DNA of 64,000 nucleotides, taken from positions 1,408,001-1,472,000 of the forward strand of contig OZ242296.1 in the NCBI GenBank assembly GCA_965207735.1, given 5' to 3'. The notes below the pieces were generated by a model. The model ran no database searches and was not told the origin of the DNA. It was given only the letters and a program-made list of their open reading frames with translations. This DNA comes from Candidatus Versatilivorator sp. (lineage in GTDB: Bacteria > Acidobacteriota > Terriglobia > Versatilivoradales > Versatilivoraceae). The position numbers and the translations under genes were made by a program. This document shows positions 1-57,567 of the stretch, piece by piece. How positions within the stretch are numbered: position 1 is the stretch's first letter; each line of letters opens with the position of its first letter.

Positions 1-336
1 TTCCCGTGTTGCTGCCTTCTTCCCCTTCCATGCGTGCCAGCGTCACTACCCCGACGGAAGCGGATCGGTGCCCGCGTCGCTCTCTTCCCCATCCGCCAAC
101 GGCCTTCCCCTAAAGACAGGAGGGTCGGCTTCCGTATTGTCCGTTTCGAGGCCTGCTCGACGTTCACTCGCGTTCCGGCCCGCATGCTCGCTGAGCCGCC
201 CTTGGCGGCCCTTGACCCCAGAGTGCTTCAGACCATTTCGTTACCTCCATGATCCGCCCTGGCTGCTACCAACCGGAGCGACAGTTGTTGGGCGGGGTTC
301 GCACCCGCCAGAAGAAGGCGCCTTTCCACGGCGCAC
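1..336 (-). ncRNA. Group II intron, 5' part (domain I), truncated by the window edge; diverged relative of the 6031-6899 intron
   Basis: Minus strand starts GTGCGCCGTGGAAAGGCGCC at 336 and aligns by eye with 6563-6899, with substitutions that include compensatory stem changes. EBS1 loop is TGTCTTT (112-118) and EBS2 is TACGGA (131-136). Whether it has an ORF cannot be seen. Confidence 0.9.
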
Positions 337-353
337 TGCCCCTTCGTGGATAA

Positions 354-377
354 GTCTTTTGTCTTTTGTCTTTTGTC
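354..377. repeat. Heptamer tandem repeat (GTCTTTT)x3 + GTC
   Basis: Directly visible between the intron 5' end and the rhodanese stop codon. Confidence 0.95.
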
Positions 378-384
378 GGTTGTT

Positions 385-762
385 TCAGGCAAGCCCACCG
401 CTGACCGGATTCCCCGACGCCACCCACTCCTTGTAGCCTCCCGCCATGGAGAACACGTTTCGGTAACCCATTCGCTGCAAGGCGTCGGCGGACAGCGCCG
501 ACCGGTACCCCCCGCCGCAATAGAGAACAATCTCGGCGTCAGGGTCGGGCACCAGCGCCTCGATATCCCTTTCGATGATTCCCTTCCCCAGGTGGACGGC
601 GCCCTCCGCATGCCCGCGAGACCATTCATGATCCTCGCGGATATCGACGAAGTGAAGGGACTGCCCCTTTTTCAGCTTTTCCCGCACCGCAGTTACCGAA
701 ACCTCTCGAATTCGGGACTTGGCATCGTCGACCACCCGCAAAAAAGCCGCTGAGTGCTGCAT
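385..762 (-). CDS. Rhodanese-like sulfurtransferase
   Basis: DIREDHEW..GHAEGA and active-site LYCGGGYRS motifs; start taken at MQHSAAF. Confidence 0.9.
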   Translation of the reverse strand: MQHSAAFLRVVDDAKSRIREVSVTAVREKLKKGQSLHFVDIREDHEWSRGHAEGAVHLGKGIIERDIEALVPDPDAEIVLYCGGGYRSALSADALQRMGYRNVFSMAGGYKEWVASGNPVSGGLA

Positions 763-5800: not shown

Positions 5801-6912
5801 CCCGCATTTCTCACCAGGCCGCTGGTGCCATGACGAAAAGTAGTTTATCTTCAGTACTTTGATTGGCTCCATGGTAAGGGCTTGTGGGTAACAGACGGCG
5901 CTGGGCATGCCCTGGCTTGTCTTTTTCCCTTCAGCGCGCACATGCTCCCTCGCACGTAGTGACCGCTACGCTCTTCGGTCGCGAGCACGCCCTGAAGGGA
6001 AAAATCCTGCGCCATGTTCATGCCCCCTGGGTAGAGTCGAGGACTGGCGCGTTGACTATAGGGTCCGGTGGCTATTCCGTCGCTTTCGCTTCGTGCCTCA
6101 GTCCGGCTCCCTTATCACGTTTCCAGTCCCCGCTCTCCGAACCGGACGTGCGGTTTTCCCGCATCTCGGCTCTCCAGTGGGATCATGCGTCTCGCACACA
6201 GGTCCCCGCTCGCATCCGTGGACGACTCCTATGGGATTGGCACCCGTCCCCCACTCCATCCACTTCCGCTCCCGGGTTGCCGCCAGGCCTGTTGATGCCC
6301 TGACGACGCCGTCCTCCTCCGACGACCCTTTCACTTTTGCATGTGATGCTTCCGGAGTCTCCGGCCCTTTTTTGGTCGGGGTTTCAGGCTTTCGCCACTC
6401 CCGGGACCCTTCCCCCTTCGGTCACCGCTCCTCACCTGAGGCCCCTTCCCTCCACCGGTATTACCCGGCTTCTCCGGTACTACAGGCCTCTCCGCCACCC
6501 TGTCGGCCTAGACTGACTCTCGCGAGCTTCCGGTTCGGTGCGTGCCTCACCACCCACAGGGCTTCCCATGTTGCTGCCTTCTTCCCCTTCCATGCGTGCC
6601 AGCGCCACTACCCCGGCGGGTCCAAAGGGGTGCCCGCGTCGCTCGCTTCCCCCTCCGTCTTCGGCCTTCCCCATTTCTCAGGTGGGTCGGCCCCCGCATT
6701 GCCCGTTTCGAGGCCTGCTCGACGTTCACTCGCGTTCCGGCCCGCATGCTCGCTGAACCGCCTTAAGCGGCCCTTTGACACCAGAGGGCTTCAGACCATA
6801 TCGTTACCTCCATGATCCGCCCTGGCTGCTACCAACCGGAGCGACAGTTGTTGGACGGGTTTCGCACCCGTTGGAAGAAGGCGCCTTTCCATGGCGCACT
6901 GAGAAATGCGGG
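5801..6912. mobile_element. IS1380-type MITE (~243 bp without the intron) whose right IR is interrupted by a group II intron
   Basis: Left end CCCGCATTTCTCACCAG at 5801. The right end re-forms as CTGG(6027-6030)+TGAGAAATGCGGG(6900-6912) once the intron is removed. Flanks are CCAG/CTAG. Ends are identical to the IRs of the IS at 42853-44550. Internal 13-bp perfect IR at 5922-5934/5992-6004. Confidence 0.85.
6031..6899 (-). ncRNA. ORF-less group II intron (IIB-like), 869 nt
   Basis: 5' GTGCG at 6899; domain V GAGCCGAGATGCGGGAAAACCGCACGTCCGGTTC; long domain VI ending CTCGACTCTAC at 6031. EBS1 TGAGAAA (6674-6680) and EBS2 TGCGGG (6693-6698) match the 5' exon. No RT ORF. Confidence 0.95.
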
Positions 6913-56698: not shown

Positions 56699-57567
56699 GT
56701 AGAGTCGAGGACTGGCGCGTTGACTATAGGGTCCGGTGGCTATTCCGTCGCTTTCGCTTCGGGCCTCAGTCCGGCTCCCTTATCACGTTTCCAGTCCCCG
56801 CTCTCCGAACCGGACGTGCGGTTTTCCCGCATCTCGGCTCTCCAGTGGGATCATGCGTCTCGCACACAGGTCCCCGCTCGCATCCGTGGACGACTCCTAT
56901 GGGATTGGCACCCGTCCCCCACTCCATCCACTTCCGCTCCCGGGTTGCCGCCAGGCCTGTTGATGCCCTGACGACGCCGTCCTCCTCCGACGACCCTTTC
57001 ACTTTTGCATGTGATGCTTCCGGAGTCTCCGGCCCTTTTTTGGTCGGGGTTTCAGGCTTTCGCCACTCCCGGGACCCTTCCCCCTTCGGTCACCGCTCCT
57101 CACCTGAGGCCCCTTCCCTCCACCGGTATTACCCGGCTTCTCCGGTACTACAGGCCTCTCCGCCACCCTGTCGGCCTAGACTGACTCTCGCGAGCTTCCG
57201 GTTCGGTGCGTGCCTCACCACCCACAGGGCTTCCCATGTTGCTGCCTTCTTCCCCTTCCATGCGTGCCAGCGCCACTACCCCGGCGGGTCCAAAGGGGTG
57301 CCCGCGTCGCTCGCTTCCCCCTCCGTCTTCGGCCTTCCCCATTTCTCAGGTGGGTCGGCCCCCGCATTGCCCGTTTCGAGGCCTGCTCGACGTTCACTCG
57401 CGTTCCGGCCCGCATGCTCGCTGAACCGCCTTAAGCGGCCCTTTGACACCAGAGGGCTTCAGACCATATCGTTACCTCCATGATCCGCCCTGGCTGCTAC
57501 CAACCGGAGCGACAGTTGTTGGACGGGTTTCGCACCCGTTGGAAGAAGGCGCCTTTCCATGGCGCAC
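56699..57567 (-). ncRNA. ORF-less group II intron, second near-identical copy (869 nt)
   Basis: Same sequence as 6031-6899 except one substitution noticed in domain VI (TTCGGGCC vs TTCGTGCC); inserted in the same IR at the same position. Confidence 0.95.

Follow-up and report, generated by a model that had tools for sequence, protein, structure and literature searches.

We found a complete group II intron, hereafter intron B, whose 5' part lies at the left edge of the window, a 64,000-nt stretch of Candidatus Versatilivorator sp. (contig OZ242296.1, positions 1,408,001 to 1,472,000). Sequence comparisons within and between genomes indicate, with good confidence, that intron B has multiplied recently and likely retrohomes to one site of a dispersed repeat of about 182 nt, with guide and domain I steps that we propose below. 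Its EBS2 is a 4-nt bulge upstream of the hexamer UACGGA, predicted to pair near exon positions -14 to -11. Sister introns without an ORF likely acquire whole guide regions via recombination.

Intron B and its family in one genome

The genome sequence of the host (G000) completes the portion of intron B in the window (Table 1), and the termini are GTGCGCC...CTCGACTCTAC. A sequence-only reading of the window had suggested retrieving the remainder to look for a reverse transcriptase (RT); the intron is full at 1,995 nt and the RT is intact. DIV encodes this 452-aa RT/maturase, which carries RVT_1 with a YADD motif and GIIM and scores 328.7 bits against TIGR04416 (cutoff 300). A domain search of the 452 aa returned RVT_1 and GIIM only, and the endonuclease (D/En) domain was absent. 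DV carries the AGC triad and closes with a loop of 5 nt, the long DVI contains a bulged A (DV/DVI fold z -3.9), and the match to RF00029 is 40.1 bits (cutoff 40). The GUGYG...AY ends, DV triad, DVI bulged A and RT ORF are those of a mobile group II intron.

Table 1 Features of intron B, its target and its sisters (window coordinates unless a genome position is given).
Feature	Position	Strand	Remark
Intron B, whole	G000:C1:1408336-1406342		1,995 nt; extends 1,659 nt past the window's left edge
Intron B, domain I (5' part)	1..336	-	RF02003, 81.4 bits
EBS3 (G)	46..46	-	pairs with +1 C of the 3' exon
ID3 stem-loop CCCU-CC-EBS1-AGGG	108..124	-	CCCA..UGGG in sister
EBS1 UGUCUUU, ID3 loop	112..118	-	from sequence and covariation
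UACGGA, 5' strand of domain I helix	131..136	-	partner UCCGU at 54-58
EBS2 core GGAC in 11-nt bulge AAACGGACAAU (136-146)	139..142	-	from covariation; pairing predicted
Upstream half of ~182-nt dispersed repeat	337..395	-	repeat split by intron B
IBS1 AGGGGCA	337..343	-	4 Watson-Crick and 3 G-U pairs with EBS1
IBS2 ATCC at -15..-12	348..351	-	3/4 pairs with GGAC; 4/4 in GGAU relatives
(GACAAAA)n run	353..377	-	variable segment of target repeat, not target
MITE (~243 bp) of IS1380-type element	5801..6912	.	terminal repeat interrupted by sister A
Sister A, ORF-less, 869 nt	6031..6899	-	EBS1 UGAGAAA, EBS2 core GGGC; one of 28
Second ORF-less A copy	56699..57567	-	

Class C (IIC) introns lack EBS2, have an EBS1 of 3-4 bp and insert after a hairpin. 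Membership of intron B in this class was ruled out by its EBS1 of 6-7 bp and its covarying EBS2. Recognition is of IIB type (EBS1-IBS1, EBS2-IBS2, EBS3-IBS3), and intron B has the 5-nt DV loop, extra DId3 bulge and long DVI that are described as RNA traits of IIE/IIF introns (PMC3753933); its lack of a D/En domain agrees with bacterial class F. Its protein is 47% identical to that of Ni.ha.I1 (g3) over 429 aa, and 33% identical to those of B.th.I3 (g2) and Rh.js.I1 (g1), by pairwise comparison. Judged from these features, intron B would work like a IIB intron of class F type, a putative g3 affinity being drawn from pairwise identity to g1-g3 references; class and g-group definitions, with Ni.ha.I1 as class F g3 in Table S2, follow PMC3552965. 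The nearest relatives, 85-98% identical, belong to Terriglobia/Candidatus Versatilivorator, and neither of two candidates on viral contigs proved to be a relative. In one relative, the gene following the intron (L001:177-380, minus strand), which its motifs suggest to be peroxiredoxin-like, contains a TGA in frame within 'GG*TAEC', where selenocysteine would fit.

A copy search of G000 with the first 340 nt of the intron as query revealed a family of 45 members with three guide types. Type B comprises 13 copies, all full length and with an intact ORF in 12. In the copy at G000:C1:1749506 (minus strand), a 1-nt deletion breaks the RT frame. Type A comprises 28 ORF-less copies of 868-870 nt plus one full-length copy. 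Type C (EBS1 UGUAAUU) has one full-length copy, one ORF-less copy of 866 nt and one remnant of 117 nt (G000:C1:4261108, minus strand), which keeps the first 84 and last ~33 nt, flanked by exons that are still intact, and whose 3' end is of the kind found in ORF-less members. The common scaffold noticed in the sequence-only reading is confirmed by 88% identity between intron B and the sister at 6031-6899 across the first 340 nt, and its idea of guides diversifying on that scaffold agrees with the three types and with the EBS1-exon covariation given below. Among the other 12 B copies, eight are identical to the window copy and the remainder differ at 1-9 bases, while the flanks of all 12 differ from those in the window. 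We interpret near-identical introns in differing flanks as recent, separate insertions into pre-existing repeat copies.

The sisters have repeats of their own. Type A insertions lie 13 bp into the terminal repeats of an IS1380-type element of 1,698 bp (L227; DDE_Tnp_1_4, E 8e-150) and of its ~240-bp MITE, and fill 27 of 157 perfect sites in G000. This genome holds about 21 full copies of the element and 26 MITEs, with YTAR duplications. The EBS2 core of A pairs with the last base of the YTAR duplication, and relatives with GGGU (L117, L170) lie at TAACCC ends. One MITE, whose end lies near 568,170 in the G000 sequence after intron removal (~573 kb in the genome), has GTGCGCC instead of CCAGGCC after its terminal repeat, which looks like a scar of imprecise intron loss. 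Type C targets a palindromic repeat, CCCAATGTATTACA|TTGGG, with 3 of 15 sites filled (G000:C1:1135573, 4261108 and 4589468). Three sister introns thus share out one genome's repeats among themselves. A fourth guide type (EBS1 UGUUAAU), seen in relatives L007-L023 and L052, occupies YTAR-CCCATCTTTAACA, which is probably an end of a further IS.

Guide positions and exon covariation

Much of the sequence-only guide map holds. EBS1 differs between B and A as it had described, the ID3 stem carries the compensatory change from CCCU..AGGG to CCCA..UGGG, and the 5' exon (..CCACGAAGGGGCA) pairs with the EBS1 of B through four Watson-Crick and three G-U pairs. Its assignment of EBS2 to the hexamer UACGGA (UGCGGG in the sister) does not hold. 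We scored each guide against its own exon and against shuffled exons. Over 52 variants, EBS1 covaried with exon -6..-1 (z 18), and the hexamer formed 3.95 pairs versus 3.91 with shuffled exons (z 0.5). The four nucleotides that follow GCCUCG-AAAN, in a bulge 6 nt upstream of the hexamer, formed 3.33 of 4 Watson-Crick pairs versus 2.14 (z 11.2, the best of three registers, with the peak at exon -14..-11). This core had been picked by eye in the first set, so we repeated the test on 56 variants of a new scan, with z 8.5 for the bulge core, -0.5 for the hexamer and 20 for EBS1. As the variants are related, all these z values are overstated. The set of relatives excluded 17 of 163 hits (no start or truncated). 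The first covariation set left 3 of 162 unparsed and omitted tandem second copies and two mis-started loci; in the second, 76 of 120 loci were parsed, 38 had no start found and 6 had no pattern.

The cores AUUU, CCGC, GUAU, AUUC, GUGU, GUCC, GACC and ACGC each face their complement in the exon. Among 90 variants the register is -11 in 66, -10 in 12 and -12 in 12, and B (core GGAC) uses -12. Types A and C share the core GGGC. The hexamer is nearly invariant over 108 variants (TGCGGA 33, TGCGGG 13, TGTGGA 10, TACGGA 8). Rejected as EBS2, it pairs instead with the 3' strand of domain I that precedes CGGGGU. Of 65 distinct combinations of strand and partner, 54 keep the first four pairs of this helix (3.43 versus 2.64 by shuffle), with compensatory G-C/A-U and C-G/U-A swaps; the pairing is ACGGA/UCCGU in B and GCGGG/CCCGC in A. 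The hexamer difference between the sisters is therefore a compensatory stem change. TCCGTA was considered as the ideal IBS2 and rejected, with 0 of 5 such sites filled. Minimum free energy folding of isolated domain I did not recover the true structure.

EBS3 is G with +1 C in types A and B, and A with +1 T in type C; this pair is Watson-Crick in 53 of 62 variant/site combinations, many of them from G000. IIB1 and IIB2 introns are described as having an additional Watson-Crick pair, EBS2a, in which the base two before EBS2 contacts the base upstream of IBS2 (PMC8643678). In the clade studied here, A is invariant at loop positions 1-3, and no exon position is paired by position 4 at more than 0.31, so that these 90 variants give no sign of EBS2a. 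Irrespective of the guide, T-16 (47 of 90 variants) and A-15 (45 of 90) are enriched clade-wide, a candidate protein contact.

Site choice within the target repeat

We counted occupancy in G000 after in-silico removal of the introns. The motif ATCCACGAAG occurs at 303 sites and marks the ~182-nt repeat, which is dispersed and partly arranged in tandem arrays; at 134 of these sites a variable GACAAAA run lies upstream within the repeat. Eleven of the 13 B insertions follow ATCCACGAAG and two lie outside the repeat. Twelve conform to RRRGRCA, all of whose forms can pair with a U-rich EBS1 when G-U is allowed; two sites end in perfect AAGACA, and three different IBS1 variants are filled. At TTATCCACGAAG[AG]G[AG]CA|C, B fills 9 of 105 sites. 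The repeat's second unit, with the same IBS1 and other upstream bases, is filled at 0 of 117 sites versus 9 of 192 (p 0.015), and the mismatched GGGCCA variant at 0 of 52, which is non-significant (p 0.21). All nine main-site insertions have TTA at -17..-15 (0 of 87 other site-1 variants are filled), which suggests protein contacts. None of 170 sites with a perfect GTCC complement to the GGAC core is filled, and sister A is indifferent to a paired -14 G (23/123 versus 5/21, p 0.56), so pairing alone is insufficient for site choice.

The same lineage has 11 copies elsewhere in the genus, spread over 5 of 13 further genomes, all 11 at the same repeat site (Table 2). EBS1 is UGUGUW at GACACA (6/6) and UGUUUU at GGAACA. 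Among the empty sites, GACACA predominates in G004 and G012 and G[AG]G[AG]CA in G000, while the two are about equal in G008. Three of the 11 copies (L357, L358, L363) have imperfect EBS1 or EBS2 pairing in the usual register, and by exact pattern no B-lineage copy was found in G009 and G011, which have many repeats. These sequences suggest that EBS1 in the B lineage follows the locally common repeat variant; because the genomes are kin, this may amount to one or two switches.

Table 2 Empty sites of each repeat variant and EBS1 of B-lineage copies, by genome.
Genome	GACACA	G[AG]G[AG]CA	GGGCCA	EBS1
G000	14	140	50	UGUCUUU x13
G002	25	89	117	UGUCUUU, UGUUUUU
G005	1	164	208	UGUCUUU; UGACUUU at GGGCCA site, one mismatch
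G004	45	22	11	UGUGUWU x4
G012	79	17	4	UGUGUUU
G008	15	16	9	one of each

Filled sites are biased towards the lagging-strand template, in type B (7/9 filled versus 29/96 empty, p 0.007) and in type A (23/28 versus 46/119, p 4e-5). This test assumes one global origin and terminus from a GC-skew curve that is irregular. By local GC skew (+-100 kb), the G-rich strand holds 6 of 13 B and 23 of 29 A copies, so that this version shows no bias for B.

From established group II biology we propose that B RNA would be transcribed from a host promoter, spliced with help of the RT, and reverse-spliced as an RNP into TTATCC-ACGA-RRRGRCA|C, with priming at the replication fork. Reverse splicing would probably use the lagging-strand template, a step we propose because the B protein lacks an endonuclease. 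The U-rich EBS1 would tolerate any purine through G-U wobble, aided by the bulge EBS2 and by EBS3, and protein or unpaired contacts at -17..-15 would add specificity. Sisters A and C would apply the same scaffold with other guides to IS1380 ends and to the palindromic repeat, and EBS1 point changes would track whichever repeat variant is common locally. Recombination near domain III would supply an old ORF-less lineage, which would borrow RT in trans, with domain I and all its guides together from full-length introns.

The sequence-only reading had offered another target, in which B is aimed at (GACAAAA)n or uses the heptamers as alternative 5' splice sites. There are indeed two perfect EBS1 complements (AAAGACA) upstream, ending at distances of 24 and 31 nt (window 360-366 and 367-373), AAAGACA lies within 45 nt at 5 of 13 B copies, and the class F intron Ge.ur.I1 is described as using, in vitro, alternative 5' sites that follow IBS1 variants (PMC3753933). 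Insertion at heptamers is nevertheless refuted in G000, where none of the 541 AAAGACA sites and none of the 121 sites in heptamer runs is filled by B. AAAGACA lies at most 40 nt upstream of 5 of 9 filled sites versus 98 of 192 pairable sites, so that proximity to heptamers is no more than chance within the repeat, and it is found upstream of none of the 11 copies in other genomes. Other copies thus lack the association with heptamers on which the sequence-only reading had staked this idea. The base after the heptamer is A, whereas the G of EBS3 reads C. In the RNA examined, which consists of contigs of relatives (best share of the window's words 0.38, none reaching half), none of the joints listed touches the heptamers. 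We regard the heptamer reading as very improbable overall; the refutation concerns insertion, and the heptamers may act as cryptic 5' splice sites. Among these contigs, the joint 542-2541 (X1-X3) was rejected as splicing, since the letters at its break differ and it corresponds to the empty GGGCCA variant. The back-joint 2537-543 in X2 may reflect a circle or else a head-to-tail dimer, a form present as DNA in relatives L014 and L078. A further head-to-tail intron dimer was seen in L152.

Specificity could also be mostly protein- or structure-based, with the RT reading T-17/T-16/A-15, an A-rich tract or DNA shape, EBS1 being loose and the EBS2 bulge vestigial in this copy. The TTA preference and the unused perfect GTCC sites speak for this, as does the reported dispensability of EBS2-IBS2 for IIE/IIF splicing in vitro (PMC3753933), although the bulge EBS2 described here may differ from the EBS2 of those tests. 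Against it stand the bulge-exon covariation over 108 variants, the CC retained in every B site and able to pair with GG at -10 to -13, and the complete pairing in GGAU relatives. We consider this explanation rather unlikely, and it is partly compatible with the guide-based one. A single insertion followed by passive spread, as repeat cargo or by gene conversion, would suit a target that is itself a multiplying repeat, and gene conversion between intron copies has been reported (PMC3522654). It is extremely improbable, since the flanks differ at all 12 other copies although the introns are identical or nearly so, two insertions lie outside the repeat and three IBS1 variants are filled. Guide-directed retrohoming, with additional contacts upstream, is the reading that we prefer.

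Domain I exchange and known systems

Phylogenetic analyses covered 33 complete introns (28 related loci and 5 from G000), 9 ORF-less and 24 full-length. In the last 175 nt (DV-DVI), the nine ORF-less introns form one clade on a long branch (100/100), which includes one intron from another family. In the domain I tree they are dispersed among full-length introns, and their monophyly was rejected (8 rows versus 24, p-AU 2e-5; the group was set by length, the test was run after the first tree had been seen, and L094 was omitted for its long branch). Up to column 399 the ORF-less C copy agrees with type C at 54 of 58 informative sites, and from column 412 onwards it agrees with type A at 37 of 41; we read this as one clean crossover between these columns. 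Every ORF-less intron has a domain I that matches some full-length intron at 95-98% identity, and that of L084, an 864-nt ORF-less intron in G005, is 98.2% identical to intron B, which suggests that B-type introns serve as donors. An old 3' half held in common, joined to domain I from differing full-length introns, indicates that guides also move by recombination.

Group II introns without an ORF have been called rare in bacteria (PMC4424553). Repeated independent ORF deletions, without domain I swaps, would account for the close match of each domain I to a full-length intron, and ORF deletion is a known route (PMC2882425). [quoted passage not shown] Their single long-branch clade extends to an intron of another family, and none of the 24 full-length rows has DIV-DVI of the ORF-less type. 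Repeated deletion is thus improbable, and acquisition of domain I by recombination is favored. We tentatively suggest, as a reading slightly less likely than not, that the guide domain of this clade is an exchangeable cassette. The ORF-less lineage would recapture domain I from whichever full-length intron newly guides an abundant repeat, full-length introns would retune EBS1 as the repeat variant of each host drifts, and EBS2 would act as a 4-nt bulge that pairs at -14..-11 over a 3-4 nt linker.

Swapping domain I onto a protein-less lineage would be a second route to new targets beside point mutation. If true, the -14..-11 bulge rule would make the widespread introns of this clade reprogrammable. 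About 2,700 sequence stretches match the domain I pattern, as estimated from 3 of 64 parts. The guide map of this large endonuclease-less clade is corrected and yields a directly testable rule, and published drawings may already place EBS2 there. A narrow search of open-licence literature returned no account of homing into REP-like repeats, of domain I swapping or of the host genus. Specialists would expect the overall biology; what stands out is the domain swap, together with the long-linker EBS2.

Guide divergence and repeat homing are already published for Thermosynechococcus elongatus and for RmInt2. The T. elongatus introns TeI3/TeI4 likewise have many related copies per genome in EBS-defined families, and their ORF-less copies, more numerous than the full-length ones, are believed to depend on a driver RT (Mohr, Ghanem and Lambowitz 2010, PMC2882425). 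As described there, they are CL/IIB1 introns with an endonuclease, and their ORF-less forms arose from one deletion and then diverged. The family in G000 differs in having no endonuclease, guide types in abundant repeats and domain I from different donors. In Hamiltonella, c-Ha.de.I1 forms two subgroups within one genome, and gene conversion over ~700 bp has taken place between the two, a single event that the account concerned does not describe as a guide swap onto an ORF-less lineage (PMC3522654).

RmInt2 of Sinorhizobium meliloti GR4 is also endonuclease-less with a lagging-strand bias, and, like sister A, homes into inverted repeats of IS elements (PMC4615759). The same source describes its IBS2 as shifted upstream, with -14..-10 selected, a 2-nt linker and tolerance of EBS2 mismatches. 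RmInt2 belongs to class D, whereas the clade of B has a linker of 3-4 nt and a covarying core of 4 nt, and the target of B is a dispersed repeat rather than an IS. The head-to-tail dimers of the relatives resemble those described for RmInt2. Similar in RNA features is Ni.ha.I1 of Nitrobacter hamburgensis (L230; class F/g3), which shares the RF02003 match, the 5-nt DV loop and the long DVI. Its protein is only 47% identical to that of B. It has the same bulge (AAAG-AGUC-GAU), facing TGAC at positions -14..-11 of its own exon.
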